Source: Candidatus Hydrogenedentota bacterium (lineage in GTDB: Bacteria; Hydrogenedentota; Hydrogenedentia; Hydrogenedentales; GCA-2746185). From it: DNA of 18,202 bases. Position numbers and translations under genes: made by a program. Location of the stretch: NCBI GenBank assembly GCA_046583315.1, contig JAYGCN010000162.1, forward strand, positions 1-18,202, given 5' to 3'. The notes under the pieces are model-generated. The model ran no database searches, was not told the DNA's origin, and saw only the letters and a list, made by a program, of their open reading frames with translations. Shown piece after piece: positions 24-18,202 of the stretch (positions within the stretch are counted from its first letter, which is position 1; the number at the start of each line of letters is the position of its first letter).

Positions 24-302
24 TCAGAAGTTTCCCGAGGCGGCCTCCCGAAGGATGTCGTTATCCAGAGCCATGTCTGCCACTAGCTTCTTAAGGCGGG
101 CATTTTCCTTCTCCAGCACGCGTAGTTTCTTTGCCTGATCGGCTTTCAAGCCACCATACTCCTTGCGCCAACGGTAATAGGTCTGCTCGGTGACCCCAAT
201 TTGCTTGCACACCAGAGGAACGGCCTTACCCTTGGCCAAAGCCACTTCCGCTTCACGGAGCTTCCCAATAATCTGTTCAGAGGTAAATCGTTTTCTAGGC
301 AT
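24..302 (-). CDS. IS3-family transposase OrfA (HTH + leucine zipper)
   Basis: MPRKRFTSEQIIGKLREAE...GVTEQTYYRWRKEYGG...LEKENARLKKLVAD is a typical IS3 OrfA. The ATG at 302 is preceded by AAGGAGGG (314-307), so it is preferred over the 332 start in the ORF track. Confidence 0.93.
   Translation of the reverse strand: MPRKRFTSEQIIGKLREAEVALAKGKAVPLVCKQIGVTEQTYYRWRKEYGGLKADQAKKLRVLEKENARLKKLVADMALDNDILREAASGNF
30..36 (-). other. Programmed -1 ribosomal frameshift site G_GGA_AAC (OrfA to OrfB)
   Basis: The minus strand reads TCG GGA AAC TTC TGA, containing an X_XXY_YYZ heptamer. The -1 frame reads KLLSPVKRKRA and is open to the window edge, as expected for the start of OrfB. Confidence 0.75.
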
Positions 303-396
303 CTTGCCCTCCTTGTCTGAACCCAATTTCACGACCTTTTACAATAGCAAATATTGGACTCGTTTAGAGGGGCGGGACCAGGCGGCTGTATAGGAT

Positions 397-425: not shown

Positions 426-460
426 ACTTCATGTATCGGTTCAACGAGTATGGAGAAACT

Positions 461-3400
461 ATGCATTATTCAGACGCACGTGCTCTCTCTCTAGTTTGTC
501 GACAAGTGTTTCTATACGGTTTGGCGTTATTCGTAACACTTATTCAAGTCGGCGCCCATGCAGCCACAGCCACGCAGTCTGGCGATTGGAGTAATGGCGC
601 GACGTGGGGCGGTTCGGTTCCCACAGGTACGGAGGAAGATATAGTTATTCCATCGGGAATCGACCTCCTTCTCGATCAGAATGTGGAGTGTGGCGAGCTG
701 AAAGTCATGGGGACGTTGACAGTGGACGCGGCTGACCTCTCACTGACGTGTGACTCGTTGATTGTGATGGGAGCGACAGCGGAATTCACGGCCGGTACAG
801 ATGTGTCACGATTTACAAATCGATTCGTTCTCACGCTAAAAGGCGAGTCATCAGAGAACTTTGAGCACACGATGGGGTCGGATACACATGACATGGGTGC
901 GCGCGCGTTGGTTGCGTTGATGGGTGGGACTATTAATATTCACGGTGAGGACCGCAATTATGAGTGGACGCATCTGGACGCGACGGTGTCTGCTGGAGCG
1001 ACACAGCTTACCTTGAGCGATGCTGTGGACTGGGAAGCTGGAGATGTCATCGTCATCACCGCATCGACATCGGACTGGACCGAAGTCGAGACGGTGACGA
1101 TTTCCTCGGTCGCCAACGGAGGCCTCACCGTAAATATTTCGTCACCTCTGGCAAACGATCACCTCGGAGTAATTTACCAATATACGCGTCCGAGTGACAG
1201 TAAGGATTGGTACGCCGACATACGTGCAGAAGTGGGCCTGCTTTCGCGGAACGTTACCATCCAAGGTGCGGCGGACAGCACGACCGATGGCTTCGGTGCA
1301 CACGTGATGATTCACGGTCCCATGGTGGATGGCGAAACGACGCATCCCTCGGGTGAAGGGTATATCAAAGGTGTCGAAATTTATCGCGGCGGACAGAAGA
1401 GTCTACTCGCGCGGTACCCCTTCCACTGGCACCTGCTTCAGGATTCGGGATCAGGTCAATACTTCAGTGACAATGCCGTACATGAATCCTTCAATCGCGG
1501 CATCACGATTCATGGCACGGACTATACCACGGTCGAAAACAATATTTTCTACAATCACATCGGTCACGGAGTGTTTTTGGAGGACGGCTCCGAATTCTAC
1601 AACACCATTCGCTACAACCTCGTCGCGCTGACCAAACGTCCCGCTCAAGGCGAGGAGGTCACCCCATCAGACAACTCCCATGACGAAGCACAGAACCGCA
1701 CTCCCGCGAGCTACTGGATCACCAACCCCAACAATACGTTCGAATACAACGTCGCTGCAGGATCCGAAGGTACCGGGTACTGGTTCATCTTCCCAACCCA
1801 GGTAATAGGGCTCGCCGCCGGTCTCACCTACTACACGGATAGAATAGCCGATGAACAGCCGCTGGGAAGCTTTCTCGGTAACACAGCACACAGCAACATG
1901 AATGGCTTCGACATATTTGATAGGCTTGGGTCGGACCACTCCATCATCAAGAATTCCGGATGGATTGAATACTCCGATCACGTATTCGACCAGAATACTT
2001 GGTACGCGAACGACACCGCGCTCTACGCCGGCGACGGCGGGCAATTCCAGGGTAATCCGACGCAAAATATCATCCATCGCGATAGTGTATTCATCGACAA
2101 TCATCACACCTTCATGCTCGCTTCGAGTAATGTGATTGAAGAATCACTCATCGTCGCCGATTCGAGTGAAAACCTCGCCGATTACCCCCGCTACTTCTGG
2201 CGAGTCTACGATGGCGCGCCCTCCCTCGTTGACAGCTATCTCGTCGGATGGGATGCGTCGGATACGAATTTCGTGGAATCCATCGGTGCGGCACACAAAC
2301 GCGTCAACTGGCGGCACTCAGGAATTGAGACCGATCATGTTGGCGTAGTCCGAATGGAATTGGAAGACTACGACATCGCGCCTACGGCCTATGCGTTCAA
2401 AAGAGACCACCCCCAGTTCTTCGGAAATATTCTCCGTGATGTGGACGGGACTTTGACAGGTACCGCCAACACGTCGGTTGTTGCGAACCATCCGTGGTTG
2501 CTGGTCGGTGACGAAACACTGCTTCCCAATGCCACGAACGTCTATCATTCTCCGCACAAGTTCGCCCGAATCACCGATTGGAAAGAGAATTATCCAGATG
2601 TATTCTTCACCCGGACAAACCCAGGAACGAAGACAGAGTATTTGTATGCGAGTAACGGGGAAGACAAGAAACATCAGATTGCCGCCATTGTTAATGAAGA
2701 CTTTCTCTATACTGTAAACTACACAGCTTTACCTGCGACCTCACCAGTAACCTGGTATCTTCGGGAAGCCGAGGAGGACGACGTAGCGCTAATTCGCATA
2801 CCCAACACAGGAGGCTTGACGGGCCTTTCTGTAAGCGGCACCACGTACACTTCCGTTGCCGAAATCTATTCCGCCTCGTCCACAACGACCGGCTACTTCC
2901 TGGACGGTGACGGTACCTTGTGGATTCGGTTTGTGGCAGATTCTGACGGACGCGCATCTGTCTCGATTTCGGGTACTGGCGGATCGATGGCCTATGTCTA
3001 CAATGGGGCGGATGATTCCGATAAAGACGGAATGTCCAACGACACGGAAGGCGGCCCGAGTCTTGATACAGACGGCGATGGTGTGCCGGATTATCTCGAT
3101 GCCAATTCCGACGGGGATGGACTATCGGACGAGGACGAAGTTTATTATGGACTTGACCCGCACTCGGCAGCAGACCTGCGGTACGAATTCGGTTCGCTTG
3201 GAACCGGCGGGTGGCAGGAGGGCGGAACAGCCGACAGCATGGACGTGGATGTTGCCGGGGCTATGGAAGTCGTGAACGGAAACGGAAACGATCCGCATAT
3301 CGCGCTTGCCTACGAAGACATCATAGGCTTCCCCGGAAATGATGTCTCGACCCTACGCGTTCGATACAAGGCAAACGCCAGCGGAACGTTGAACTTGTTC

Positions 3401-3868
3401 TGGGCCAATACACTGGGTGGATTCAGTGCGTTGCGCAGACTTTCTGCGACAACCAGTTACACCGCGAACAGCGGATATCAGGAAGCGGTATTTAACGTTG
3501 GCTTACATTCCGAATGGGCGAATAAGCAGATAACTGGAATGCGACTTGACACATTGGACAGTGCTCCGAACTCAACGGTCTATGTCGATTGGATTCGCGC
3601 GGGAACGCAGACTGAATTATCAAGTAGCGGCCCAACCTATATCGTCTACGTCGACTTTGGCCACGGCGGACTGGAAGACGGCTCCTCAAGTTATCCTTGG
3701 AACCTTCTTGAGGAAGCACTCGATGTCGTCGATACAGACGGTCTAATCAACATCACCAAAGGCTCTGGCCACAACGAATCCGCAGAAACCTTCTCTGGTG
3801 GCGGCACCATCAGTCAGCAGGTGACTATCGATGCCATCGGCGGACTTGTACGTATCGGAGCGCCATAA
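461..3868 (+). CDS. Secreted G8-domain / parallel beta-helix protein (CEMIP/TMEM2/fibrocystin-like) with TSP3-like Ca-binding repeats and a CBM-like domain
   Basis: GGAG RBS just before ATG 461 (alternative start 431). Signal peptide ending AHA|A. G8-type start SGDWSNGATW. CEMIP/TMEM2-like motifs RAEVGLLSRNVTIQG, RYPFHWH, NRGITIHGT, GHGVFLEDGSE, SYWITNPNN and FLGNTAHSN. DxDxDG repeats at ~3011-3175. Confidence 0.85.
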   Translation: MHYSDARALSLVCRQVFLYGLALFVTLIQVGAHAATATQSGDWSNGATWGGSVPTGTEEDIVIPSGIDLLLDQNVECGELKVMGTLTVDAADLSLTCDSLIVMGATAEFTAGTDVSRFTNRFVLTLKGESSENFEHTMGSDTHDMGARALVALMGGTINIHGEDRNYEWTHLDATVSAGATQLTLSDAVDWEAGDVIVITASTSDWTEVETVTISSVANGGLTVNISSPLANDHLGVIYQYTRPSDSKDWYADIRAEVGLLSRNVTIQGAADSTTDGFGAHVMIHGPMVDGETTHPSGEGYIKGVEIYRGGQKSLLARYPFHWHLLQDSGSGQYFSDNAVHESFNRGITIHGTDYTTVENNIFYNHIGHGVFLEDGSEFYNTIRYNLVALTKRPAQGEEVTPSDNSHDEAQNRTPASYWITNPNNTFEYNVAAGSEGTGYWFIFPTQVIGLAAGLTYYTDRIADEQPLGSFLGNTAHSNMNGFDIFDRLGSDHSIIKNSGWIEYSDHVFDQNTWYANDTALYAGDGGQFQGNPTQNIIHRDSVFIDNHHTFMLASSNVIEESLIVADSSENLADYPRYFWRVYDGAPSLVDSYLVGWDASDTNFVESIGAAHKRVNWRHSGIETDHVGVVRMELEDYDIAPTAYAFKRDHPQFFGNILRDVDGTLTGTANTSVVANHPWLLVGDETLLPNATNVYHSPHKFARITDWKENYPDVFFTRTNPGTKTEYLYASNGEDKKHQIAAIVNEDFLYTVNYTALPATSPVTWYLREAEEDDVALIRIPNTGGLTGLSVSGTTYTSVAEIYSASSTTTGYFLDGDGTLWIRFVADSDGRASVSISGTGGSMAYVYNGADDSDKDGMSNDTEGGPSLDTDGDGVPDYLDANSDGDGLSDEDEVYYGLDPHSAADLRYEFGSLGTGGWQEGGTADSMDVDVAGAMEVVNGNGNDPHIALAYEDIIGFPGNDVSTLRVRYKANASGTLNLFWANTLGGFSALRRLSATTSYTANSGYQEAVFNVGLHSEWANKQITGMRLDTLDSAPNSTVYVDWIRAGTQTELSSSGPTYIVYVDFGHGGLEDGSSSYPWNLLEEALDVVDTDGLINITKGSGHNESAETFSGGGTISQQVTIDAIGGLVRIGAP
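3011..3175 (+). repeat. Thrombospondin type-3-like Asp-rich Ca-binding repeats within the G8 protein
   Basis: DSDKDGMSND, DTDGDGVPDYLD and NSDGDGLSDEDEVYYGLDP. Confidence 0.75.
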
Positions 3869-4600: not shown

Positions 4601-6604
4601 CTATTTGGCAGGAGAGACAGGCTTGTCTCTGGATACCCTTTTCTTTCGTTTCGTGTTCTTCGTGCCGGGGATAGTGTGAACATATTCACCTCTGAAGCGC
4701 TTATTGGCGTCCTGGCGCCTACGTTCGTGGGCTTCGGGTGGCGGCGTATCCGATATGAGGCAATCGCATCCTTTGCCGATGAGATCGCTTCGCTTGGCAT
4801 CTATCAGCGCTTTACGAACCTCGAAGTAGTTTTCCGGTTTGAAGAACTGCATGAGCGCACGTTGGAGTTTTCGGTCGCGCAGTTTTCTGGCGATATGAAC
4901 GGGTTTTTTCGTGAATGGATCAAGTCCCGTATAGTACATTGTCGTGGCCACGTCCAACGGCGCAGGAATGAAATCCTGCACTTGGTCGGGACGATAGCCG
5001 GTCCTCTTGAGCATCACAGCCAGATGAATCATGGAGTCGAGATCGCTGCCGGGATGACTAGCGATAAAGTATGGGATAATTTGCTGTCTTTTACCCATTT
5101 TTTCCGATTCCTCGTGAAATACTTCAGTGAAATATTCGAAATCGTCGCCGGAGGGTTTACGCATCATATTTAAGACTTCGGGATCGGTATGCTCGGGAGC
5201 TACTTTCAATCGTCCGCCGACATGGTGCCGAGTCAGCTCCCGAATATATTCGGGTGATTTGCGAGCGAGATCCATTCGAACGCCGCTTGCTACCTTGACC
5301 ATCTTAATGCCCTTTACATTACGGGCCTCTTTCATGAGTTCTATAACCGGGCCATGATCGGTTCCCAGCAACTTGCAAATTTTCGGATGTACGCACGATT
5401 GCCGACGGCAGATCGCTTCAACCTCGGGCTTGGAGCATTTCATTTCGTACATGTTTGCGGTAGGCCCACCGATATCGCTGACGACCCCCTTGAACTTAGG
5501 ATCCTCCGTCATCGTTTCCAACTCATTGAGGATCGAGTCCTTACTTCGTGATTGGATAATTCGGCCCTGGTGCGCGGTGATCGAACAAAACGTACAGCCA
5601 CCGAAACATCCGCGCATGATGGTGACTGAATCCTTAATCATCGTGCTGGCGGGAATAGTTTCTGTGTACTCGGGATGAGGTTTTCGCGTGTATGGCAAAC
5701 CGTAGATACTGTCCATAGCCGCTTGGCTAATGGGATAACGTGGAGGATTACAGACAATCGTCCGTTGACCATGAAATTGTATTAATCGACGCGCATTAAA
5801 TGGATTCGTTTCGTTATGAATGTGCTTGGTGGCTTCGGCAAATTGCACCTTATCGGCCACGACCTCGTCGTAGCTGGGAAGCGTAATCGCATCTTCAGGG
5901 GGTGTCTCGGAGGCGCCCGTCGCATACGCAATACCGCGCAAATCTCGGAGTGACTGTAATGAATCTCCCTCGTTAAGTCGATTGGCAATTTCCAAGATGA
6001 TGTCTTCGCCCATCCCAAAGACGAGAAGATCCGCTTTCGAATCGAGCAAAATCGATCGACGGACTTTGTCTGACCAGTAATCATAATGGGCCAGACGACG
6101 AAGCGATGCTTCGACACCGCCAGCAATTACGGGAACGCCTTTGTACGCTTCGCGCGCTCGTTGACAATAGGCCAGAGTAGCCCGATCAGGCCGCAAGCCT
6201 ATTTTTCCACCGGGCGAATAGGCATCATCGTTTCTCACTTTTCTATTTGCCGTGTAGTGGTTGATCATCGAATCCATGTTGCCGGCGCTAACTGCGTAAA
6301 AAAGTCGTGGACGACCGAAGCGTTGCCAGTCGTCTGCATTATCCCAATTCGGTTGTGAAACGATTCCAACGCGAAAGCCCCCTGCCTCCAATACCCGACC
6401 CAAAATAGCCATCGCGAAACTCGGGTGGTCTATGTATGCGTCACCTGTGACGAAGACGATGTCGATTTCGTCCCAGCCACGCTGATCCATTTCTTCCTTA
6501 GACATGGGTAACGCAGTGCGCTCCAATAGAGGCACGTTCTGCTTGGGCAACTGAGCGAGTAGAGTACTGGAAGAAAAAGCTTCGTTGAGCCTTTGGGATG
6601 GCAT
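4601..6604 (-). CDS. ygiQ: YgiQ (UPF0313) family radical SAM protein
   Basis: VTGDAYIDHPSF, AGNMDSMINHYT, GGVEASLRRLAHYDYW, CxxxCxxC (CFGGCTFC), DIGGPTANMY, VAPEH, PYFIASHPG and QVQDFIPAP. The ATG at 6604 has GGAG 8 nt upstream; the alternative start is TTG at 6637. Confidence 0.93.
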   Translation of the reverse strand: MPSQRLNEAFSSSTLLAQLPKQNVPLLERTALPMSKEEMDQRGWDEIDIVFVTGDAYIDHPSFAMAILGRVLEAGGFRVGIVSQPNWDNADDWQRFGRPRLFYAVSAGNMDSMINHYTANRKVRNDDAYSPGGKIGLRPDRATLAYCQRAREAYKGVPVIAGGVEASLRRLAHYDYWSDKVRRSILLDSKADLLVFGMGEDIILEIANRLNEGDSLQSLRDLRGIAYATGASETPPEDAITLPSYDEVVADKVQFAEATKHIHNETNPFNARRLIQFHGQRTIVCNPPRYPISQAAMDSIYGLPYTRKPHPEYTETIPASTMIKDSVTIMRGCFGGCTFCSITAHQGRIIQSRSKDSILNELETMTEDPKFKGVVSDIGGPTANMYEMKCSKPEVEAICRRQSCVHPKICKLLGTDHGPVIELMKEARNVKGIKMVKVASGVRMDLARKSPEYIRELTRHHVGGRLKVAPEHTDPEVLNMMRKPSGDDFEYFTEVFHEESEKMGKRQQIIPYFIASHPGSDLDSMIHLAVMLKRTGYRPDQVQDFIPAPLDVATTMYYTGLDPFTKKPVHIARKLRDRKLQRALMQFFKPENYFEVRKALIDAKRSDLIGKGCDCLISDTPPPEAHERRRQDANKRFRGEYVHTIPGTKNTKRKKRVSRDKPVSPAK

Positions 6605-6641
6605 GATTGGTGCTCCGGCGATCACGGTAGTGGACAAAACA

Positions 6642-6898: not shown

Positions 6899-7636
6899 TC
6901 ACATTGCGGCTCCCCGGCTTGCGTGTAAGGCTGATTCTATGTGTTTTATAATCTCGGGGACACCTTGGTTGTCTTTTGCGTTACTGAACAGAAAAGGGCC
7001 ATCGCCACGCATTTTTCGGGTGTCCCTGTCCATGACCCCCAAGTCTGCGCCGACGGCTACGGCCAGATCCTTTTTGTTGATGACAAAAAGGTCTGATTGT
7101 GTGATACCGGGTCCGCCCTTGCGAGGAATCTTGTCCCCGCCGGACACATCGATGATGTAGATAATGTAATCGGCGAGTTCCCGGCTGAAGTTGGCTGCAA
7201 GATTGTCCCCGCCACTCTCAACAAAAAGTAATTCTATTTTTCCACCTGATTTTTTTGTGAGGCTGTCGAGTGCACGCAGATTGAGTGATATGTCTTCACG
7301 TATGGCAGCGTGCGGACAACCACCCGTTTCGACCGCTTCAATCCTGTCGGCCTCAAGCGCGTTGTGTCGAGTAAGAAACTGGGCATCTTCGCGCGTGAAG
7401 ATATCGTTTGTGACTACCCCGATTTCGTAGGTATCCCGAAGTGCCTCGCACAATCGCAAGAGAAGTGCAGTTTTGCCCGACCCGACGGGCCCGCCGATGC
7501 CGACTGTAAACGGACGTTTGGAAAAGTCTCGGATTTCATTGGCCAGGCTGCGCATGTGATACTCCCCCGGCCCGCTGAGTCTCTCGTGCGTGTGTCCGTG
7601 GTCGTGACTATGATCGTGGGTATGTTGATTGCACAT
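6899..7636 (-). CDS. ureG: Urease accessory GTPase UreG with a His-rich N-terminal extension
   Basis: P-loop [44 protein letters not shown] and NKKD. The ATG at 7636 has AAGGAG at 7650-7645. Confidence 0.97.
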
Positions 7637-7683
7637 GTGTATTTCTCCTTCATGAACGTATTTGGTCTCTTTATGCGAGTGTC

Positions 7684-8376
7684 CTAATTTTGAAACAGTT
7701 TTGAGTACATATATTGATGACTGGCCTGGGCCATCTCGATCATGGGCTGTGAACGCGCCGCCCGATCGTAGGTGACGTCGGCGTATTGAATCCGAAGGGA
7801 TTCGCATTCGGGTGCCACGAGCACATAGAGTGCCTGCGCTCGGAGCGGCCCGATTAGGCCAAGCCGTATGGCCGCGCTGAATTGATCGCGCAGTGCCATA
7901 TGTAAAGCCAGTCGCTGTATGGCGCTACGTTCGAATCCAATTCGACGTAGCAAGAGCGGAAGGACAATTTGAAAATACATGGGCAAGGAATTAGCTCTAA
8001 ACCGTTGTTCGAGTTCTTCGACACCTTCCGGATTGTAGGCACTTTTAATTAGAGAAAACCAGTTTTCTCCCAATATTCCACTTGCTTTTCGGATAGAATA
8101 GATTGTGTTGAGTCCTTCCCATTCTTCGGTCAACTCAGTGAGTGCAACTTGATGGAAGTCGTCATCCAGAGCATACGAGGAGTTGATGAAGGGTAGTTCG
8201 AACTCGCTGACCGTTTTCAATTGGGAAATAAGGTATTCGCGAAAGTCCTCCTCGGATCTCAAATGGCCTGACTTGCCCATCGATTCGAGCCCTTGCGAAA
8301 ACGCGAAACCACCCGTGGGAAACGCGGTGTCCGCAAGATGCATGAGCGTGTATGGTTCGAGAGCGAAATTTTGCAT
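7684..8376 (-). CDS. ureF: Urease accessory protein UreF
   Basis: [29 protein letters not shown] and C-terminal [11 protein letters not shown]; lies between ureC and ureG. Confidence 0.95.
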
Positions 8377-8384
8377 TGGGCAAC

Positions 8385-10100
8385 CTAAAACAGATTGAAC
8401 AGTCGTGCCAAGGGCAACGTCGTCGCGGGTTCGCAGGTCAGCAGCTCACCATCGGCGTGCACCTGATAGGTTTCGGGGTCAATTTTCATTTCGGGGAGAG
8501 CATCGTTGAGGCGCATGTCCTTCTTGGTCAATCCTCTGCATGCGTGCACTGCCTCGACCGATTTACTGAGTCCGTAATTGGCTTTGACGTGATCGAGCGA
8601 AGCTTTTGAGACGAATGCGAGTGAATTGAGTCCAACCGCAACGCCGTGCGCGCCAAACATGGGTCTTGAAAAATAGGGTTGCGGCGTTGGAATTGACGCG
8701 TTCGGATCTCCCATCTGGGATTGAACGATAATGCCACTTTTCAGAATCATCTCGGGTTTCGAACCGAAAAAGCCAGGTTTCCACAACACCAAGTCGGCCA
8801 ATTTTCCCACTTCAACAGATCCGACATGGTCTGAAATTCCGTGGGCGACTGCCGGGTTAATTGTGTATTTGGCGATGTAGCGCTTGACTCGAAGGTTGTC
8901 ACTGTCGCTGCCCATATCCTCGGGCAATAGGCCACGCTGCACTTTCATTTTATGCGCGGTCTGCCAGGTACGGCAAATGACTTCGCCTACGCGCCCCATG
9001 GCCTGTGAATCGGAGGCGATGATGGAGATGGCTCCAAGATCGTGCAGAATATCCTCTGCGGCGATCGTTTCCCCGCGAATTCGGCTTTCGGCGAAGGCCA
9101 CATCTTCAGGAATGTTTTTGTCCAGGTGATGACACACCATGAGCATGTCGAGATGCTCGTCAATCGTGTTCACAGTGAAGGGACGCGTCGGGTTGGTTGA
9201 CGACGGCAGCACGTTGAGCTCGCCGCATACCTTCATGATATCCGGCGCATGCCCGCCTCCGGCACCTTCCGTGTGGTAGGTATGAATCGTCCGCCCTTCG
9301 AAAGCGGCGATGGTCTGCTCGACGAAGCCAGACTCGTTTAGCGTGTCCGTATGGATTGCAACCTGGATGTCGTAGTTCTCAGCCACGGAAAGGCAGCTTC
9401 GGATGGATGCCGGTGTGGTGCCCCAGTCTTCGTGAAGCTTAAGCCCGAGTGCGCCCCCTTCGACCTGTTCGACCAAGCCCTGCGGCAAAGAGGAATTTCC
9501 TTTGCCGAGAAAGCCGAAGTTTAACGGATAGGAGTCTGTCGCGGCGAGCATCATTTCAATATGGTTCGCGCCGGGCGTGCACGTGGTTGCTTTGGTACCT
9601 GTTGCAGGCCCCGTGCCCCCGCCGATCATCGTGGTCACGCCCGAGGCCAACGCTTCGTCGATTTGCTGAGGACAGATGAAGTGGATGTGCGCATCAATAC
9701 CGCCTGCGGTGAGAATGAGTCCTTCACAGGCGATGACTTCCGTGGTCACGCCTACGCGCATTGTCGGGTCTACGTCGGGCATGATGTGGGGATTGCCCGC
9801 TTTGCCGATACCCACGATACGACCGTCTTTGATACCGACGTCCGCCTTGATGATCCCCGTATAATCAACGATCAGCGCGTTGGTGATCAACAGATCCAAT
9901 GCTTCCGCCTGCGGGAGCCCTGCTGACTGACCCATGCCGTCGCGTAGCGTTTTGCCGCCTCCGAATTTGCATTCTTCGCCGTATGTTGTGCGATCTTCTT
10001 CGACCCGTATCAGGAGCTCTGTATCACCCAATCGCACACAGTCCCCGGTTGTGGGGCCATAGATGTCCGCGTAGGCTCTTCGATCCATTTCGTAGCTCAT
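8385..10100 (-). CDS. ureC: Urease alpha (catalytic) subunit
   Basis: [39 protein letters not shown] (carbamylated Lys), [21 protein letters not shown], flap MVCHHL and [11 protein letters not shown]. All Ni ligands are present. GGAG RBS. Confidence 0.99.
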
Positions 10101-10143
10101 GCTTTTTCTCCAATGCTGCGTTCAGGTTCTGTGTGATTGTTGC

Positions 10144-10899
10144 TTACTCTTTGGATGCCTGGTCAAAATTCTTCATCGCCGTCGCGCAATTCTCAGGAGA
10201 TACGTTGCCCGAAATGAATCCGTTGCCTCCGTAGATCACTTGTTCGCCCGCGATTTTCACAAGTGAGACGTTTTTTGATTCGCCCGGTTCGAAGCGAACG
10301 GCCGTGCCCGAGGGGATATCCAGCCGATACCCGAAGGCGCGTTCACGGTCGAAATTCAGTTGAGAATTGGTTTCGAAGAAGGGGTAGTGTGATCCCACTT
10401 GAATTGGGCGGTCCCCGCTATTTGTGACTTCGAGATCCCGGGTTTTCCTGTCGTTGTTGAGCACGATGGCCTCATCCAACAGCACGTATTCTCCGGGTGA
10501 GCAGCGTTCTGCGGAATCGGTATCGCCCAACTCACTGTTCCATTGCCCCATCTTTAGGCCGGATCCGTACAGGGCCAATTCACGGTCACCATGCTCCGCA
10601 CAGATGGGTACATGCACCGTCACCAGTTTCGTTCCATCGGGAAACGTACCTTCCACTTGAACTTCGTGTAGGAGCTCGGCAACACCGGGCAGCACGTCTG
10701 AGAAGCCAAGAATTGTTTTGCCGGTATCCATGAGCGTGGCGACATCCTGACCATCCCGGATCAATTCCAGAATTTGCGTTGCGAGCAGCGCCATTGATTC
10801 GGGGTAATTTAGACGAAGGCCACGCCACAACCGTTTTTGCGCAATAAACCCCGCGTTGTGCAAGGTGATCTTTTCCATTTCCTTTGGTGACAACCGCAT
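10144..10899 (-). CDS. ureAB: Fused urease gamma/beta subunit
   Basis: Gamma domain (RGLRLNYPE, VQVEGTFPDGTKLVTVH) is in frame with the beta domain (NSGDRPIQVGSHYPFFE, GYRLDIPSGTAVRFEPGE). AAGGAG RBS. Confidence 0.97.
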   Translation of the reverse strand: MRLSPKEMEKITLHNAGFIAQKRLWRGLRLNYPESMALLATQILELIRDGQDVATLMDTGKTILGFSDVLPGVAELLHEVQVEGTFPDGTKLVTVHVPICAEHGDRELALYGSGLKMGQWNSELGDTDSAERCSPGEYVLLDEAIVLNNDRKTRDLEVTNSGDRPIQVGSHYPFFETNSQLNFDRERAFGYRLDIPSGTAVRFEPGESKNVSLVKIAGEQVIYGGNGFISGNVSPENCATAMKNFDQASKE

Positions 10900-10971
10900 A
10901 CGTCTTTCTCCTTCTGCTCACTTTGTCATTGCGATTCGCTCTTCGAACCGCATAATGAAACACTTATAGAT

Positions 10972-11871
10972 TTAGAACTTTCGCTTGCATGGATTGAAGC
11001 CCAAAATTTCCGGTGAAGCCACTGCCTTCCCAAGCGCTTTCACGTAGGCCGATAAGGATTCCTTTTTTGTGCTCATTGCTCGAACGATCAACGCATCTTC
11101 GCCGACGGGATTCGCGACAACCCACAATCGGGCATCGTTTGTGGGTCCGTCCGTGCCCGAGGCACCGCTAGACTTGAAAATGTCCAGTCCTTCTAGCGCC
11201 CGCACGAGCTTCCGACCGACGATGTATACGCTAAGCAGACTTCGATAGGGACCGAAAGCGCCTGCACCGTAGGGGTTGTCTTTCGCTGGTTCGATACGCA
11301 GGCGGTCGATGATACGTTTTTTCCCGTCGATATGAATACGAACTTCCGAACTTAAGTAATCGTAGTCAAAGCATTCGCCGTATGCCGTTCGTCCAGAGTG
11401 AAGCCAGTCGACCAGCATCACATTTGCAGATGCGTCCAGATGCCATTCCTGCAATTGTTCGAGCCGACTGCCCGCGAAGGGAATGAGCGCGTCCGGCAGA
11501 ATCACTGCTAACGCACCGCTGGCCAATTTCCCGCGTACATGTTGTCGAGCCGGTTTGCCATCAAACGACTTGTATACTTTGGTATCCGCCTGGGTACCCA
11601 GAAAAAATTTGGAATCGTGCTCACAGTCAATCTCGAGTTGGATGTTGTCTCCTGCGACCAGCCCGCCTCCGTAACTTGAGAGGTATACTTGGCTACTTTC
11701 GGACAGGTTACGTGGGTTGAGAATCTTGAGCGGTTGCACATTTTTGCAGGAGACGATTCGTGAAGTGCCCTTCCAGGATGCCACGCGGATTCGGCTCCAC
11801 TGTGCCTCTGAGGAGTGCAAGTGTTGCGCATTTTGGTCGCGGGCGATAACGCCCAAGGCGGCTTCAGACAC
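10972..11871 (-). CDS. ureD: Urease accessory protein UreD
   Basis: SYGGGLVAGD, TQADTKVYKS, LPDALIPFAGS and DWLHSGR. The GTG start overlaps the urtE stop by 8 nt. Confidence 0.93.
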   Translation of the reverse strand: MSEAALGVIARDQNAQHLHSSEAQWSRIRVASWKGTSRIVSCKNVQPLKILNPRNLSESSQVYLSSYGGGLVAGDNIQLEIDCEHDSKFFLGTQADTKVYKSFDGKPARQHVRGKLASGALAVILPDALIPFAGSRLEQLQEWHLDASANVMLVDWLHSGRTAYGECFDYDYLSSEVRIHIDGKKRIIDRLRIEPAKDNPYGAGAFGPYRSLLSVYIVGRKLVRALEGLDIFKSSGASGTDGPTNDARLWVVANPVGEDALIVRAMSTKKESLSAYVKALGKAVASPEILGFNPCKRKF

Positions 11872-12559
11872 TCAGATACTCCTTCACGATTTCTTCGCTC
11901 AGATTTTCGGTTGTCCCGTCGGCCACGGTTTCGCCACGATTCATCACGTAGAATCGGTGGCAATACTTGCGAACAAAATCCAGGTACTGTTCAATAATGA
12001 GAACGGTTATGCCTTCTTCTTCGACAAGACGGCGCAAGACTTCGCCGATCTGCGTAATGATATTGGGCTGTATGCCTTCAGTGGGTTCATCGAGCACCAG
12101 TAGCTTGGGTTGCGTGACAAGTGCGCGACCAATGGCCAACTGCTGCTGCTGACCGCCTGAGAGATCGCCGCCCATGCGTCCGGACATTTCGCTGAGTATC
12201 GGAAAATACTCGTAGATGCTCTCGGGAATGCCACGCTTCCTGTCGCCCACCGCTGCGAGCGCGACACGCAGATTTTCTTCTACGCTGAGTTTTGGAAAGA
12301 TCATCCGCCCCTGAGGGACGTAACCCATCCCTTTGCTTGCCCGGTAGTGAGCTGGACGCGAAGAAAGATCCTCATCTTCGAATGACACGGTCCCGGCTGA
12401 GGCGCGCTCCAATCCAAGGATGTTACGCACCAAGGTGGTTTTACCGACGCCGTTTCGTCCGATAACGCTTACCATTTCTCCACGATTTAAGGATAGATTT
12501 ACCCCATTGAGCGTTTGGACCTCTCCGTAAGAAAAGGATAGATTGTTGACTCTAAGCAT
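11864..12559 (-). CDS. urtE: Urea ABC transporter ATP-binding subunit UrtE
   Basis: GRNGVGKT, YVPQGRMIFPKL, GGDLSGGQQQQLAIGRAL and LDEPTEGIQP. Confidence 0.95.
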   Translation of the reverse strand: MLRVNNLSFSYGEVQTLNGVNLSLNRGEMVSVIGRNGVGKTTLVRNILGLERASAGTVSFEDEDLSSRPAHYRASKGMGYVPQGRMIFPKLSVEENLRVALAAVGDRKRGIPESIYEYFPILSEMSGRMGGDLSGGQQQQLAIGRALVTQPKLLVLDEPTEGIQPNIITQIGEVLRRLVEEEGITVLIIEQYLDFVRKYCHRFYVMNRGETVADGTTENLSEEIVKEYLSV

Positions 12560-12573
12560 TTTGATTGTCTTCC

Positions 12574-13395
12574 CTACCTTCCCAGGTACGCCTCGATTAC
12601 TTCAGCGTTGGACTGAATTTCATCCAATGATCCTTCCGCCATCACCATGCCTTCGTTTAGTACGGAAATGTAGGAATCCAGATTGCGCACGAAATCCATG
12701 TCGTGTTCTATCACCACAATCGTGTGGTCTTCCTTTAATTCCAATAAAAGTTCCGCGGTCAGCATGGTCTCCGCATCGGAGAGTCCCGCAGCCGGTTCAT
12801 CGATGAGCAGTAGCTTTGGGTCCGAGAGGATTAATGTAGAAATGGATAGCCATTGACGCTGCCCATGACTAAGCTGACTTGCCGGGGTATCGATTTCGGC
12901 GCCCAAGCCCACGCGCTCAAGGATGGCGCGAATTTGCTCTCGATCGCGTGGTTTTAGCGAACCCAGGAGATTACGCCACATGCCCTGGTTTTTAGGGAGG
13001 GCCAATTGCATGTTTTCAATCGTTGTAAGACTGTCAAACACGGTTGGCGTTTGAAATTTTCGACGAATACCTCGTAAGGCAATGTCCATTTCGGTCTTAT
13101 TAGATATGTTTTCTCCGTCAAAAAATACTTCTCCCGTAGCCGGGGTTGTCTTGCCGCTCACCACGTCGCACAACGTGGTCTTGCCCGCGCCGTTGGGCCC
13201 GATGATAACCCGAAGCTCGTTGTGTTCGACCCCAAAGGCCTCGATGTCTAATGCTTTGAATCCATCAAATTCAACTTTAATGCCTTCGATGAACAAAATG
13301 TATTTTTCATCCCAGCGGCGACTTTGTCCCGGATGTTCATTGACGTAACGAGCAAGCGGGTTACTGCTCGTTTTCGTGATTATTTTCCGTGTCAT
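12574..13395 (-). CDS. urtD: Urea ABC transporter ATP-binding subunit UrtD
   Basis: FDGFKAL, ELRVIIGPNGAGKTT, RKFQTPTVF, LSHGQRQWL, DEPAAG and IEHDMDFV. ATGA overlap with urtC. Confidence 0.95.
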   Translation of the reverse strand: MTRKIITKTSSNPLARYVNEHPGQSRRWDEKYILFIEGIKVEFDGFKALDIEAFGVEHNELRVIIGPNGAGKTTLCDVVSGKTTPATGEVFFDGENISNKTEMDIALRGIRRKFQTPTVFDSLTTIENMQLALPKNQGMWRNLLGSLKPRDREQIRAILERVGLGAEIDTPASQLSHGQRQWLSISTLILSDPKLLLIDEPAAGLSDAETMLTAELLLELKEDHTIVVIEHDMDFVRNLDSYISVLNEGMVMAEGSLDEIQSNAEVIEAYLGR

Positions 13396-14567
13396 CGTGA
13401 TCCCTCTTCTGCCACGAAAGGTTCTGCATTTTTTGTTCGTGTTTTTCTGCCGGGCAAGAGGCTGGCCAAGCCTTCATTAAAATACACCGCCACTGATACA
13501 AAGAGTACGCCGAGGACGAACTGCCAGTATTCCGCCTTCCAAGTGAAAAACACCATATCTCTTTCAGACGTAAGGTAGTTGTAAAGAATATTCACGAATA
13601 ACGCTCCAATAATCGGCCCTGTGAGTGTTCCGCGACCACCAACGGCAACCCAGACCACGACCAGTATCGATGCGCTGGCCTCCATGTTGTGTGGCGTGAA
13701 GATTCCCATCTGGGGGGTGTAGAGCATCCCGGCGAGTCCGGTGATGGTTCCTGCAACGACATAGGCAAACATCTTGTAGGTGTGCGGCGCGTACCCGTAG
13801 AATCGAAGGGCACTTTCATTGTCCCGTACAGCAACGAGAATTCGGCCCAATGGTGAATTGACGATATATCGGCATAGCGCATAGGAGCCAATCAACGCCA
13901 CCAACGTGCACAGATAGAGCGTCAGCTTAACATTGGGATCGGAGAGATGAAATGAACCGGCAATGTATTCGAATCGGGTCAGGCCGTTGGTCCCACCCAG
14001 TTTCATGTTGTTCATGGAGAAGAAGTTGACCGCCGCTACGGTAATGGCCTGAGTCAGGATGGCAAAATACACACCTCGCACACGGCTTCGGAAGCCGAAG
14101 AATCCGATCAATCCTGCAACAATGGCGGGAAGTAACATCCCGAAAAAGAGAGTACCCGGCAGCGTCCAGAATGGTTTCCAGAACCAGGGGGTGAGTGCAT
14201 CGGCCGGTGCCTCACCGATTTTGTAGGGGTATACAACGTATAAACATGCCGGAATTTTCCAACCGTTTGTATCGATAATTCCTTCAGGACCGCCGTGGTG
14301 GGCCAGATACATGCCCATTGCGTAGCCTCCGAGCGAGAAGAAAAAGGCTTGGCACAAACTCAAGATACCCGTGTATCCCCAGATGAGATCGAGGGCTACG
14401 GCCATCATGGCAAAAGTCAGATATCGACCGAGCATGTTCACCATTTCAATACTGATCACGCCGGAAAAATAAAGTGCCGGAATGCCGATGAGACCAAAGG
14501 CGAAAAGGCCGTACAGCAGTCGAACGTCGAGCGAACTGCGGTCGCCGTGTGTGAGTTTTTTAATCAT
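13392..14567 (-). CDS. urtC: Urea ABC transporter permease UrtC
   Basis: ALDLIWGYTGILSL, GGYAMGMYL, FRSRVRGVYFAILTQA and WVAVGGRGTL. The ATG at 14567 overlaps the urtB stop (ATGATTAA). Confidence 0.95.
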   Translation of the reverse strand: MIKKLTHGDRSSLDVRLLYGLFAFGLIGIPALYFSGVISIEMVNMLGRYLTFAMMAVALDLIWGYTGILSLCQAFFFSLGGYAMGMYLAHHGGPEGIIDTNGWKIPACLYVVYPYKIGEAPADALTPWFWKPFWTLPGTLFFGMLLPAIVAGLIGFFGFRSRVRGVYFAILTQAITVAAVNFFSMNNMKLGGTNGLTRFEYIAGSFHLSDPNVKLTLYLCTLVALIGSYALCRYIVNSPLGRILVAVRDNESALRFYGYAPHTYKMFAYVVAGTITGLAGMLYTPQMGIFTPHNMEASASILVVVWVAVGGRGTLTGPIIGALFVNILYNYLTSERDMVFFTWKAEYWQFVLGVLFVSVAVYFNEGLASLLPGRKTRTKNAEPFVAEEGSR

Positions 14568-16401
14568 CGGCGAGCCTGCCTTTCGGAGCAAAGAGACCGG
14601 ACGGCCTGAACTGCATAAAGGCCACGATTAAGACCAGCAGTATGATTTTCGCCCATATTGTTCCCGTACCCGGCTCGATAATCTTGGTGAGCACGCCGAT
14701 TCCCAGCCCCGAACAGATGACACCGATGATTTTTCCTACACCACCGGTCACGACCACGAGAAATGAATCGACAATGTATACTTGTTGGCCCATGTCAGGC
14801 GTCACACCGCCAATGAGCGTCACGGCGTATCCCGCGACGCCCGCGAGTCCGGAGCCGAAGGCGAAAGTGAGGGCATCAATGCGTTTTGTGTTTACCCCGA
14901 GACTTGACGCCATATCGCGATTTTGCATCGTCGCACGCATTTGGAGTCCTATACGTGTAAAGTTCATCAGCCCATATACTGCAGCAACACTTAGAGCCGT
15001 TAGGCCTAGAATGAACAATCGGCTCCACGGAAGATTAAAGTCCTGAACCACTTCCCAGCTACCGCGTGCCCACTCAGGTGCGGCAACCCCGATATTGTCG
15101 CCATAGCGAATACGTACGCATTGAATGAGGATAAGGCCAACGCCCCACGTTGCCAACAGAGACTCCAGTGGCTTGCGGTAGAGGTGTCTAATCACTATGA
15201 GCTCCATTAGAAAACCAACAAACGCGGCGGACAGAAAGGCAACCGGGAGTGCGAGAGCGTAGTAGTATCCGAATGCCGCTTCAGGCAGCTTGCCTTGTTC
15301 AATAAGGTTCGCAAAGAGTGATTGCACTTCATAGGTTGCGTATGCACCGATCATCAGGAGTTCGCCGTGCGCCATATTGATGACGCCCATCAGGCCGAAG
15401 GTGATTGCGAGGCCCAGCGCCATCAGAATCAGAATCGAACCAAGTGAAAAACCGCGAAACATGTTTTCCGCCATGCTCACATTTCGTTGATGTGCAGCGA
15501 TTGCCGAGATGGAGCGTCTGTACAGGTTTTCCTTCTCGACGAACTCCGAATCGTCTACCGGTTTCGCCTGAGGGTCGCTGGACTCAGCTGTCTTCGCATC
15601 TTGTGTTTTCCTAAGGGCGCGTAGCCGATCCTCGAGCCTGGGTAATGCGCGCAGACTTTTTAGCGTCGCAAGACTCTCAACGGCGGCCATCTGAATCCCG
15701 TCTCTCTCGTCATCGAGTTGAATGAGTAGAATACTCTCTTGTGCTACACGCCGAATCTTGGCATTGGGATCGTTTTCGGCCAGTTCTGTTAGGCGATCCA
15801 GGGCCTCAAACAAAAGCGGGGGATCACCGCACTTTTTGGCTCCGGATAAGCGAAGGTCGGCGAGCGGAGATGAAAGGCGGGATAAATACTTGGCGCTCGT
15901 GGCCCAGCGGCGTTCTTTTTTTCCAGCGTCGAGTTCTTCCAGGTCCTCCAGTGCTACGAGCATTTGATCTGGATTTAGCTCGACGCCTTCAATCTCGACA
16001 GAGTGCATGTCGCTCGGAATCACCGCATACGATCCATCCAAATAGGTGAGGGGGTCGAACAAGGGGGAAAATTCGTCGAAGTCCTCATTTTCCACGGTAT
16101 CTTCAGACAAAACCACCATGCGAACCGCGTTAGCATCTTCCCAGATGTAGAGACTACCTTGTCGGTAGAACTCCATCAACGCTTCGATTCGAGGGTCCCC
16201 GGTATTGGCAAGAGCGGTGATGGTGGCACGAACGACCTCTGAATCATCGTTCCCAAGATCAAGCAACAATTCCCGAATGGTTTCGGTGGCAGCTGGATCC
16301 CGGGTGTCCGATTGCTGCACTTCGTCGCTTGAACAGCCGTTGAAGAAAAGCATACTCAACAATGCAAACGTGCACAGTGGGAACATGTAAAATTGTTTCA
16401 T
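14560..16401 (-). CDS. urtB: Urea ABC transporter permease UrtB with a long N-terminal extracytoplasmic HEAT-like domain
   Basis: SLGSILILMALGLAITFGLMGVINMAHGE, RHLYRKPLESLLATWG, TFAFGSGLAGVAG and VDSFLVVVTGGVG. The N-terminal ~310 aa are helical/HEAT-like and follow a signal peptide. Confidence 0.93.
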   Translation of the reverse strand: MKQFYMFPLCTFALLSMLFFNGCSSDEVQQSDTRDPAATETIRELLLDLGNDDSEVVRATITALANTGDPRIEALMEFYRQGSLYIWEDANAVRMVVLSEDTVENEDFDEFSPLFDPLTYLDGSYAVIPSDMHSVEIEGVELNPDQMLVALEDLEELDAGKKERRWATSAKYLSRLSSPLADLRLSGAKKCGDPPLLFEALDRLTELAENDPNAKIRRVAQESILLIQLDDERDGIQMAAVESLATLKSLRALPRLEDRLRALRKTQDAKTAESSDPQAKPVDDSEFVEKENLYRRSISAIAAHQRNVSMAENMFRGFSLGSILILMALGLAITFGLMGVINMAHGELLMIGAYATYEVQSLFANLIEQGKLPEAAFGYYYALALPVAFLSAAFVGFLMELIVIRHLYRKPLESLLATWGVGLILIQCVRIRYGDNIGVAAPEWARGSWEVVQDFNLPWSRLFILGLTALSVAAVYGLMNFTRIGLQMRATMQNRDMASSLGVNTKRIDALTFAFGSGLAGVAGYAVTLIGGVTPDMGQQVYIVDSFLVVVTGGVGKIIGVICSGLGIGVLTKIIEPGTGTIWAKIILLVLIVAFMQFRPSGLFAPKGRLADD

Positions 16402-16503
16402 GAATCACTCTGATTCGACCAAGACACACAATAGTCGGTCGGTTTGATAATGCAACCATTCGCGTATTGAATGGTCAAGTTACCGCTGCGTAAGTTGCCT
16501 CCG

Positions 16504-16550
16504 CGTAGTGCTTTCGCACAGTGTCAGAATGCTGTGCGAAAGCGACTACG
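16504..16550. repeat. Strong inverted repeat (GTAG-type REP-like hairpin) between urtA and urtB
   Basis: CGTAGT-GCTTTCGCACAG (16504-16521) pairs with CTGTGCGAAAGC-G-ACTACG (16532-16550): an 18-bp stem with one bulge, CGTAG at both ends and no U-tail. Confidence 0.7.
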
Positions 16551-16580
16551 ATTGTTTCGCGGCACAGATCAGATGTCAGA

Positions 16581-17852
16581 TTACGAATCCGATTTTGGTC
16601 CTCCTGTTGGTGCAGGAAAGTTCCCATCGGGATGCAGGTAGGTGCTGTATGAATCCGGTGAAACCAGACCATCCGACTGGTGAATGATCTTGAACTGCCC
16701 GTTCTTTTTGATTTCGCCAATATAGACCGGTTTCAAAGTGTGCTGATTTGTGGGGTGCATTTTCTTTGCGCCACCGGGCGCATCAAATTCGAGGCCGTAT
16801 ACGGCTTCACGCACTTTGTCTACATCGAATGAACCCGCCTTTTCGACTGCGGCCTTCCACACATACACGCCAAAGTAGGCCGCTTCGATGGGATCGTCAG
16901 TCACACGCTCTGATCCGCCGGGGAGATTGTTCTCCTTGCAGTACGTTTTGAAATTCTTCACGAACTGCTTGTTGCCAGAAGACTTGATGGTCTGAAAATA
17001 GTTCCAGGCCGCGAGATGACCCACCAGCGGTGGAACGTCCATCGCGCGAAGCTCATCTTCGGCTACGGAGAAGGCCATGATGGGGCAATCTTCCGCTGTC
17101 AGACCCTGATTGGCGAATTCACGGTAAAACGGCACATTACTGTCGCCATTAATGGTGGATAGAACGCAGGCGTCACCGCCCGCTGCAAACTTCCTGATTT
17201 TACCTACGATGGTCTGATAATCCTGGTGATGAAACGGCGTGTACTCTTCGATGATATTTTCATCAGCAACGCCTACACTTTTCAGGTAGGCCTTAAGGAC
17301 TTTGTTTGCTGTACGTGGAAAAACGTAGTCGGTTCCAAGAAGATAAAATTTCTTGCTCTCGTACTCGCTCATCATGTACGCAGCAGCCGGGACAAGTTGC
17401 TGGTTGGGCGAAGCGCCAGTGTAAAAGACGTTCAACGATTGTTCTTCACCCTCATACTGAACAGGGTAGAAGAGCAACGCATTGTACTCTTCGAATACGG
17501 GCAAGCACGATTTGCGGCTCACCGAAGTCCAGCAACCAAAGGTGACGGCAACTTCTTTTTCGGCGATGAGTTCCTTGGCTTTTTCAGCGAACAAGGGCCA
17601 GTTCGATGCGGGATCGACTACGACGGGCTCAATTTGCTTGCCGAGCACGCCGCCGCTGGCATTGATTTCTCCGACCGCCATCAATACGACATCACGTAGC
17701 GAGGTCTCAGAGATGGCCATGGTTCCAGAGAGAGAGTGGAGTACACCAATCTTTACGGTGTCTTCTTGGGCCGATGCGGTACCCTGTCCAAAACCTGCAA
17801 CAAGAGTAAGCGCAAGAGCGGCAACTTTTAGTTTTAATCGTTTGACTTTCAT
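16581..17852 (-). CDS. urtA: Urea ABC transporter substrate-binding protein UrtA
   Basis: Signal peptide ending ASA|Q; KIGVLHSLSGTMAISE, DPASNWPLFAEKA, FGCWTSVSRKS, FYPVQYEGEE, GTDYVFPRTAN and GHLAAWNYFQ. Confidence 0.97.
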   Translation of the reverse strand: MKVKRLKLKVAALALTLVAGFGQGTASAQEDTVKIGVLHSLSGTMAISETSLRDVVLMAVGEINASGGVLGKQIEPVVVDPASNWPLFAEKAKELIAEKEVAVTFGCWTSVSRKSCLPVFEEYNALLFYPVQYEGEEQSLNVFYTGASPNQQLVPAAAYMMSEYESKKFYLLGTDYVFPRTANKVLKAYLKSVGVADENIIEEYTPFHHQDYQTIVGKIRKFAAGGDACVLSTINGDSNVPFYREFANQGLTAEDCPIMAFSVAEDELRAMDVPPLVGHLAAWNYFQTIKSSGNKQFVKNFKTYCKENNLPGGSERVTDDPIEAAYFGVYVWKAAVEKAGSFDVDKVREAVYGLEFDAPGGAKKMHPTNQHTLKPVYIGEIKKNGQFKIIHQSDGLVSPDSYSTYLHPDGNFPAPTGGPKSDS

Positions 17853-17888: not shown

Positions 17889-18202
17889 TTAGAATTGAAA
17901 CTGTGTTCCGAGAACGATTTGACTGGAGTCGGAAGTACCATCATCTTTAATGAGCGAGTACACCAGTGATACACGCGCATTGTGGCCGTTGATCACGTAG
18001 TTCACACCAAGATCGTACTGTGAATCATCTTCAAACTCTTGATATCGAACATGCGGCTGGAATTTGCCATAACCCACTTCCTTTGGGATGAGGTATCCAG
18101 CCAAGCCGATCAATGCATCTCCATCGCGAAGGTCTGGGTCCGGCTCGTCGTTGAGATCATAACGGTACGCTGCCCCTTCAAGGGTAACTACGCCTTTGTT
18201 TG
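17889..18202 (-). CDS. Outer-membrane porin, FmdC-like short-chain amide/urea porin (C-terminal part; 5' end outside the window)
   Basis: The frame is open to the window edge: NKGVVTLEGAAYRYD...AGYLIPKEVGYGKFQPHVRYQEF...LGVNYVINGHNARVSL...LGTQFQF. Amphipathic beta-strands, terminal Phe (BAM signal), and position directly upstream of urtA. Confidence 0.75.
   Translation of the reverse strand, partial: NKGVVTLEGAAYRYDLNDEPDPDLRDGDALIGLAGYLIPKEVGYGKFQPHVRYQEFEDDSQYDLGVNYVINGHNARVSLVYSLIKDDGTSDSSQIVLGTQFQF

Follow-up and report, generated by a model that had tools for sequence, protein, structure and literature searches.

A two-chain urease operon without UreE in Candidatus Hydrogenedentota and its kinship with eukaryotic urease

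The urease operon described here lies on contig JAYGCN010000162.1 of Candidatus Hydrogenedentota bacterium (GCA_046583315.1), and the window that we analysed is this one whole contig of 18,202 nucleotides (G000:C89). Its closest described counterpart is the urease system of eukaryotes (jack bean, 3LA4; pigeon pea, 4G7E; Cryptococcus Ure1, Ure4, Ure6 and Ure7), which has the same accessory set minus UreE. Eukaryotic ureases are the top PDB matches of the window urease, and they have in common with the window a homologous gamma-beta linker, a homologous histidine-bearing extension of UreG and one branch in the urease, UreG and UreF trees. The eukaryotic enzyme is a single chain, whereas the window encodes two chains in an operon behind the urtABCDE genes and has no beta-alpha linker; its gamma-beta linker reads GSGL, and G[ST]FL stands at this place in 111 of the best 120 long ureases. 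A passage of a 2018 review gives the reason for the absence of UreE from eukaryotes as unknown (PMC6077230).

The Klebsiella-type operon ureDABCEFG has the same gene order apart from ureE, with equal catalytic motifs and GTPase core. The window differs from it in the fusion of gamma and beta, the absence of ureE and 45 additional UreG residues, and a joint placement was rejected by the approximately unbiased (AU) test. Helicobacter, in which UreA is gamma-beta and UreB is alpha, has the two-chain architecture in common with the window and has UreE; H. pylori is without the plant-type linker. Helicobacter was compared by PDB scores and alignment only and is absent from the trees. According to a passage of the 2018 review, its two-chain ureases are not intermediate to the single-chain eukaryotic ones (PMC6077230). 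Gamma-beta fusions in some bacteria are mentioned in an excerpt of Strope et al. (PMC3073912). Streptomyces, Paenibacillus cellulosilyticus and most Nitrospirales have only UreD, UreF and UreG, and some of their UreG ends are histidine-rich. These three-chain operons differ from the window in that gamma and beta are separate and UreG lacks the PGxF..RxFT extension. Since an excerpt of PMC12342949 reports UreE missing from most Nitrospirales genomes, its absence is already a known trait in bacteria.

Taken together, the window carries the urea-import and urease operon of a two-chain bacterial group that was probably the source of the eukaryotic urease kit, and in which the UreG extension likely delivers nickel. 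We give this reading a probability of about 0.75.

The operon and its kinship with eukaryotic urease

We found five urease genes on the minus strand, in the order urtABCDE-ureD-ureAB-ureC-(8 nt)-ureF-ureG (open reading frames, identified by Pfam and NCBIfam).

urtA-urtB-urtC-urtD-urtE, 11864..17852, minus strand: urea ABC importer; TIGR03407-TIGR03411 all over cut-offs
ureD, 10972..11871, minus strand: 299-aa scaffold accessory protein with a GTG start; PF01774, E 3e-44
ureAB, 10144..10899, minus strand: 251-aa gamma-beta fusion; PF00547 and PF00699, NF009671 over cut-off
ureC, 8385..10100, minus strand: 571-aa catalytic alpha subunit; TIGR01792, 942 bits
ureC-ureF spacer, 8377..8384, minus strand: 8 nt, the position of ureE in Klebsiella-type operons
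ureF, 7684..8376, minus strand: 230 aa; PF01730, E 2e-16
ureG, 6899..7636, minus strand: 245-aa GTPase, 8 His in an N-terminal extension of 45 residues; TIGR00101 over cut-off

These coordinates and family matches confirm the five-gene module with 8 nt between ureC and ureF, in an operon without ureE, that an earlier note on this DNA had read from the letters. The exact 8-nt gap leaves no space for ureE there, and the order ureC-ureE-ureF was observed in other, UreE-bearing loci. ureD and the 3' end of urtE share 8 nt, which places the ure module directly behind a complete urtABCDE set. The remaining gaps are 72 nt (ureD-ureAB), 43 nt (ureAB-ureC) and 47 nt (ureF-ureG), and the importer and urease genes are likely co-transcribed; a scan for promoters and terminators gave signals at chance level. 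Although the longest open reading frame of ureG starts at 7807, the ATG at 7636 is preceded by a GAAGGAG ribosome-binding site.

The gamma, beta and alpha urease domains are all present (Pfam, NCBIfam). A stop codon and the 43-nt gap separate ureAB from ureC, so that they do not form a single gamma-beta-alpha chain. UreC keeps H138, H140, K221, H250, H276 and D364 together with the flap C323-H324-H325, which we take to be the dinickel ligands and the flap Cys-His. In UreG the P-loop (49-56), CPH (107-109) and NKKD (187-190) are intact, and we assume the usual roles for these P-loop, CPH and NKxD positions. The locus almost certainly encodes an active nickel urease (EC 3.5.1.5).

The gamma-beta junction is of the plant type. 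Residues 1-243 of UreAB align in a single stretch with pigeon pea and jack bean urease, including the linker at about residues 100-134 (...ELALYGSGL...). Against H. pylori the alignment falls into two stretches, as the H. pylori gamma part ends at 102 and its beta part starts at 105; the window thus has about 30 extra junction residues, alignable to plants. The linker core ...GDLxLAL[YH]GS[FG]L... is common to the window type, a Myxococcota type and eukaryotes, and it was not seen in the gamma-beta fusions of Deinococcus, Methylobacterium and K. michiganensis. It is present in 120/120 long ureases among the best 120 of 1876 matches, with F (111), Y (1) or G (8) at the variable position. GSFL versus GSGL was considered as a marker of Myxococcota plus eukaryotes and rejected: locus L257 reads GSFL yet groups weakly with the window type, L325 reads GSGL among GSFL loci, and the G of 8/120 single-chain ureases also breaks the rule. 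The best PDB matches of UreC are plant ureases (873 and 868 bits), ahead of Klebsiella (818) and Helicobacter (810). Predicted folds were not used as evidence. The UreAB model (predicted local distance difference test score, pLDDT, 82; predicted template modelling score 0.49) ranked jack bean urease first, barely ahead of Helicobacter and with a root-mean-square deviation of about 15 A, and a UreG model made without an alignment was unusable (pLDDT 36).

Trees were built with the linker and the UreG extension excluded, leaving 773 columns for the urease domains. Among the 40 urease rows counted as eukaryotic, 14 are single-chain proteins without a name, assigned to this group by their architecture, and 3 have only a EukProt id; the smaller trees hold mostly named eukaryote rows. 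The window type, the Myxococcota type and eukaryotes formed one branch in the urease domains with support 100/100 (44 rows), FastTree support 100 (121 rows) and a Shimodaira-Hasegawa-like approximate likelihood ratio of 99 under C20 (66 rows, quick search). The same branch was recovered for the UreG core (99/100, 56 rows) and for UreF (99/97, 56 rows), where the eukaryotic rows are three named fungi only (3 named eukaryotes among 51 matches). A combined matrix of 36 rows, six of them cross-species composites of eukaryotes, gave 100/100 under both LG and C20. AU tests rejected a place for the window type among proteobacterial-type UreE operons, at p=0.0004 in the urease set and p=0.0008 in the UreG set. 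Grouping it with three-chain operons that lack UreE was rejected too (p=3e-7, and p=9e-5 for Streptomyces alone), in a sample that covers Streptomyces, Rubrobacter and Paenibacillus, with Nitrospirales outside it. UreD, compared among bacteria, has 35-40% identity (187-242 bits) to loci of the same type, 31-36% (118-123 bits) to the Myxococcota type and 22-29% (36-72 bits) to ordinary types.

The earlier note had suggested that gamma, alpha, UreD and UreG look closer to eukaryotic orthologues than to Klebsiella-type ones. This is borne out for gamma/beta, alpha and UreG by the joint branch, and UreF behaves likewise in the tree with three fungal sequences. Nesting inside UreE-containing clades, one of the outcomes that the note had named as speaking against its idea, was not observed. 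Shared ancestry of this operon type with eukaryotic urease, leaving out the other bacteria sampled, is highly probable on the trees.

Nickel supply and the UreG extension

UreE is likely absent from the whole genome. With Pfam UreE_C there were 0 matches at E<=10, and the 3 matches to UreE_N all stayed below the cut-off, the best of them at E 0.57. A profile of 36 UreE sequences searched against 64,694 six-frame open reading frames reached a best E of 1.2, while all held-out UreE sequences scored E<=6e-19. This genome-wide search, which the earlier note had proposed, thus found no ureE outside the operon either; the absence is likely rather than proven, because completeness of the assembly is estimated at 96.66% and contamination at 5.38%. 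A distant ureE, or HypA or HypB as a substitute, was dismissed after the genome searches: neither HypA nor HypB was found, nor was a second UreG/HypB-like match. A HupE/UreJ match in the genome is marginal.

The UreG extension is alignable across members (HGHTHE...PGxF/Y...RDFxxRxFT, ahead of the P-loop). We found its motif in 77/79 window-type loci, both misses differing at one motif position, in 45/45 Myxococcota-type loci and in 40/40 named eukaryotic UreG. Outside these groups it occurs in 1/37 separate-subunit loci (L221, a frameshifted copy of the window type) and in 0/9 short fusions. The corresponding site has been studied in Cryptococcus, where an excerpt reports that His-to-Ala changes at Ure7 residues 80-82 abolish fungal urease activity and places the P-loop at 115-122 (PMC3663189). 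Fungal Ure7 is reported to bind about 2 Ni per monomer, against 1 for Klebsiella UreG. We infer that this site matches H-T-H at residues 15-17 of the window UreG, from the same P-loop spacing in a related yeast sequence (P0224), the Ure7 sequence itself not being part of the comparison. By analogy with the fungal protein, the UreG extension probably replaces UreE.

In the proposed pathway, UrtABCDE would import urea, and UreD and UreF would dock on apo-(UreAB-UreC). UreG would hold nickel at CPH and at the N-terminal H-T-H site, and GTP hydrolysis would release it, as in fungal Ure7. The urease would then yield ammonia, which may serve as a nitrogen source. These maturation steps are modelled on the Klebsiella/Helicobacter scheme, as outlined in a passage of the 2018 review (PMC6077230), and on the excerpted fungal data.

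The history could be as we propose while UreG receives its nickel from an unrecognised chaperone or a free pool, with the histidine extension merely a store. Members differ in the number of histidines in the extension (2 to 18), one Hymenobacter cluster includes an unclassified open reading frame and a gene resembling HupE/UreJ or NicO, and a passage of the 2018 review calls Klebsiella UreE the sole accessory protein not crucial for activation (PMC6077230). Against these observations, the H-x-H before PGxF/Y is kept in 77/79 window-type, 44/45 Myxococcota-type and 40/40 eukaryotic UreG, the matching fungal site is essential in the excerpted work (PMC3663189), and the genome is without HypA or HypB. 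We consider another route unlikely, at the level of a minority view, and prefer delivery by the extension.

Two three-chain loci without UreE (L196 and L181) have a histidine-rich UreG C-terminus, where 11 and 10, respectively, of the final 25 residues are His. This is a separate solution to the loss of UreE.

Distribution and direction of transfer

In the host phylum, urease is present in 2/135 genomes, both of one family and with identical layout. A scan with UreAB (the best 80 of 170 confirmed stretches) retrieved Cytophagales, Fibrobacterota, Lentisphaeria, Kiritimatiellae, other Verrucomicrobia, Archangium, Latescibacterota and Sumerlaeota, and ureF follows ureC without ureE in every locus extending that far. 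The fused long-linker form accounts for 42/46 urease-positive genomes in the phylum of Archangium (201 genomes), 12/21 in the phylum containing Fibrobacteria (151 genomes) and 4/35 in Verrucomicrobiota (251 genomes). The phylum of a metagenome-assembled genome titled 'Janthinobacterium' has urease in only 3/121 genomes, and outgroups were therefore drawn from plasmid records.

Among 206 distinct loci (4 unclassifiable; L211, whose linker is unrelated, was moved by hand), ureE is present in 0/132 with the long linker, 128 of which reach ureF, against 54/70 others. Genome-wide, UreE_N exceeded its cut-off in 1/43 and 0/44, that is 1/87, genomes of this type, with 4/4 ordinary-type controls positive. 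The sole positive genome, a Pontibacter (G076), also holds a second, ordinary cluster. The fused long-linker, UreE-less type is widespread and not special to this genome. The earlier note was right that ureE is absent; taken alone, this absence is common in bacteria.

Several observations accompany this survey. The ordinary three-chain cluster of the Pontibacter genome (L186, beside the UreE-less L037) has two ureE copies. Hymenobacter loci (L252:2022-3985 and L007-L084) have ureAB-ureC gaps of up to 2.2 kb and an inverted ureD; in L252 the gap holds an unclassified 182-aa open reading frame, with a weak NicO/HupE-like gene upstream. Among database proteins, a UreC-UreF fusion (P0272), a UreF-UreG fusion (P0281) and a doubled UreG domain (P0169) are either real or assembly errors. 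Two titles of metagenome-assembled genomes are likely wrong: Janthinobacterium (L021) has a Hymenobacter-like layout, and Bifidobacteriales (L018) a Fibrobacterota-like placement.

Within the joint branch, the best tree in most analyses unites eukaryotes with the Myxococcota type and leaves the window type outside. Support for this pairing is 70/80 for urease, 99/97 for UreG and 93/92 for UreF, 90/94 for the combined matrix and 93/98 for the same matrix under C20, and 91/78 in a further tree. Thus the idea that the window lineage is a sister or donor of the eukaryotic urease holds in part: three gene trees support the kinship, while the donor role does not fit, as Myxococcota stand nearer in most best trees. 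The closest kin of the window in the urease tree are the same-family genome (G005) and then Fibrobacterota (98/91), while the nearest relatives of its UrtA are those of Lentisphaeria and Kiritimatiellae (85-86%). Together with the presence of urease in 2/135 genomes of the phylum, this suggests that the cassette was acquired sideways, and this lineage is likely a recipient and not the donor. A misbinned contig is an unlikely explanation: its GC of 0.517 compares with 0.532 for the genome, its tetranucleotide correlation is 0.96 (rank 95/134, median 0.972), and the same-family genome carries a sister operon.

We propose that the fusion of gamma and beta through the long linker occurred once, in bacteria, and that the same is true of the loss of ureE and of the acquisition of the extension by UreG. 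The operon would then have spread laterally among phyla, including into the family of this genome, and a member probably on the Myxococcota side would have handed the kit to early eukaryotes. A further fusion of beta to alpha in eukaryotes would have given the single chain, a path from three to two to one chains whose two-chain step is not that of Helicobacter. A direction from bacteria to eukaryotes seems quite probable, since the bacterial operon is intact in the Klebsiella order minus ureE and eukaryotes are one clade nested next to Myxococcota. The Myxococcota side is slightly favoured as donor by the tree order. That all eukaryotic ureases derive from one UreE-less two-chain operon, which a relative of myxobacteria would have supplied as a unit before the time of the last eukaryotic common ancestor, is a tentative view to which we give a little less than an even chance. 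In recent studies of eukaryogenesis, Myxococcota are named among the major donors of early eukaryotes (PMC13468126; bioRxiv 10.64898/2026.05.08.723234).

Several points weigh against this account. AU tests did not reject the window type with eukaryotes (p 0.41 for urease, 0.39 for UreG, 0.11 for a third set) or with Myxococcota (p 0.29, 0.46 and 0.14); because they leave the branch order unfixed, the direction of transfer is inferred and not shown. Monophyly of eukaryotes reached only 71-77 bootstrap with the long-branched Rhodosorus, a row that shifts between analyses. The eukaryotic ureases, as the best 120 of 1876 matches to the window UreAB, are a biased draw, and the gene trees that include eukaryotes cover urease, UreG and UreF, with UreD compared among bacteria only, as an Atlas look-up for eukaryotic UreD yielded none but bacterial clusters. 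The trees are without named Cyanobacteria, Nitrospirota, Planctomycetota, Acidobacteriota, Chloroflexota, Helicobacter and ammonia-oxidising or Asgard archaea. In UreC-only trees the branch is shorter and weaker (94-96). As to nickel, the UreG of Cytophagales has only 2-3 His left in the extension, and the sole NicO match in the genome resembles a nickel/cobalt efflux pump, with no nickel importer found.

The kinship could also be real with the direction reversed, an early eukaryote having passed the genes to bacteria, where the single chain was split into AB and C and the operon assembled. The second set of AU values above allows a single bacterial clade as sister to eukaryotes, eukaryote monophyly is weak in some trees (Rhodosorus joins Myxococcota at 81/46 under C20), and the bacterial distribution is patchy (2/135, 3/121, 4/251). 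This course would require the joint transfer of four eukaryotic genes that are not linked, and their assembly into the ordinary bacterial D-AB-C-F-G order; moreover, eukaryotes form one clade (97/96) once Rhodosorus is removed, and no bacterial single-chain urease was found in 247 loci or among the 80 metagenome loci listed. We therefore regard a transfer from eukaryotes to bacteria as improbable and retain the bacterial origin.

P0039, P0043, P0067 and their clusters are single-chain ureases of 872-882 aa with a GSGL-like linker, encoded on many short assembled contigs. They fall inside the eukaryote clade; a cluster look-up gave no taxon, and the group did not turn up, among the matches listed, in a metagenome scan aimed at it.

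The breadth of the joint branch was examined in UreC-only FastTree analyses. After the addition of 76/150 cluster representatives, all unnamed, the branch had a support of 94, and 13 of them, of unknown gene layout, fell inside. With 80 metagenome loci not selected for urease type the support was 96; 8/8 long-linker loci fell inside and 0/72 others, with Rhodosorus outside. Convergence or artefact, in which repeated loss of ureE, histidine-rich UreG ends and gamma-beta fusion arose independently and thin outgroups feign exclusivity, would find room in UreE-less operons with histidine-rich UreG ends outside the branch (Paenibacillus, Streptomyces, L181), in other gamma-beta fusions (Deinococcus, Methylobacterium, some Fibrobacterota, Helicobacter) and in the several phyla missing from the trees, but is very improbable given a branch recovered from three separate gene sets at a node without long branches, a linker and extension that are alignable homologous sequence beyond mere histidine richness or length, and added representatives and metagenome loci that put no separate-subunit or short-fusion locus inside.

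Neighbouring genes and implications

Other features of the window lie outside the urease genes. UrtB (14560-16401, minus strand) has 613 aa, with a HEAT-like region ahead of its permease domain (Pfam). Upstream of urtA, a cut-off open reading frame (17889-18200, minus strand) without a Pfam or NCBIfam match ends in Phe; outer-membrane barrels often end in Phe, and this product is possibly a urea porin. A YgiQ-family radical SAM gene (4601-6637, minus strand; NCBIfam) lies downstream of ureG. A 1145-aa protein (431-3868, plus strand) is likely secreted; it starts with a hydrophobic stretch and contains a TSP3 repeat as well as G8 and CEMIP beta-helix domains (Pfam). An IS3-type transposase orfA (24-332, minus strand; Pfam HTH_Tnp_1, NCBIfam) stands at the contig end.

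Our literature search found no description of this urease group, in a search that did not cover the 2013 phylogeny of Ligabue-Braun et al. and a 2009 review; the group is probably new in print. The word 'urease' is absent from the main texts of PMC13468126 and bioRxiv 10.64898/2026.05.08.723234, and a text search of supplements to PMC13468126 and PMC12872458 did not find it either. Gene-level tables in preprint supplements may already record this sisterhood. The accessible parts of PMC4009401, PMC7547064 and bioRxiv 10.1101/2024.05.16.594469 added nothing on the origin.

The chemistry of this urease is ordinary, and this genome is one among many carriers; the evolutionary and mechanistic implications are testable. 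The cultured environmental carriers Hymenobacter, Pontibacter and Archangium offer a compact five-gene operon in which nickel loading of the plant/fungal type can be studied in bacteria. Should the Myxococcota placement prove right, the metabolic genes assigned to that donor would come to include urease. If our reading is true, bacteria would have lost UreE and fused gamma to beta before eukaryotes arose, and this would explain why eukaryotes are without UreE. Present-day bacteria of this kind would then preserve the missing two-chain step together with nickel loading free of UreE.

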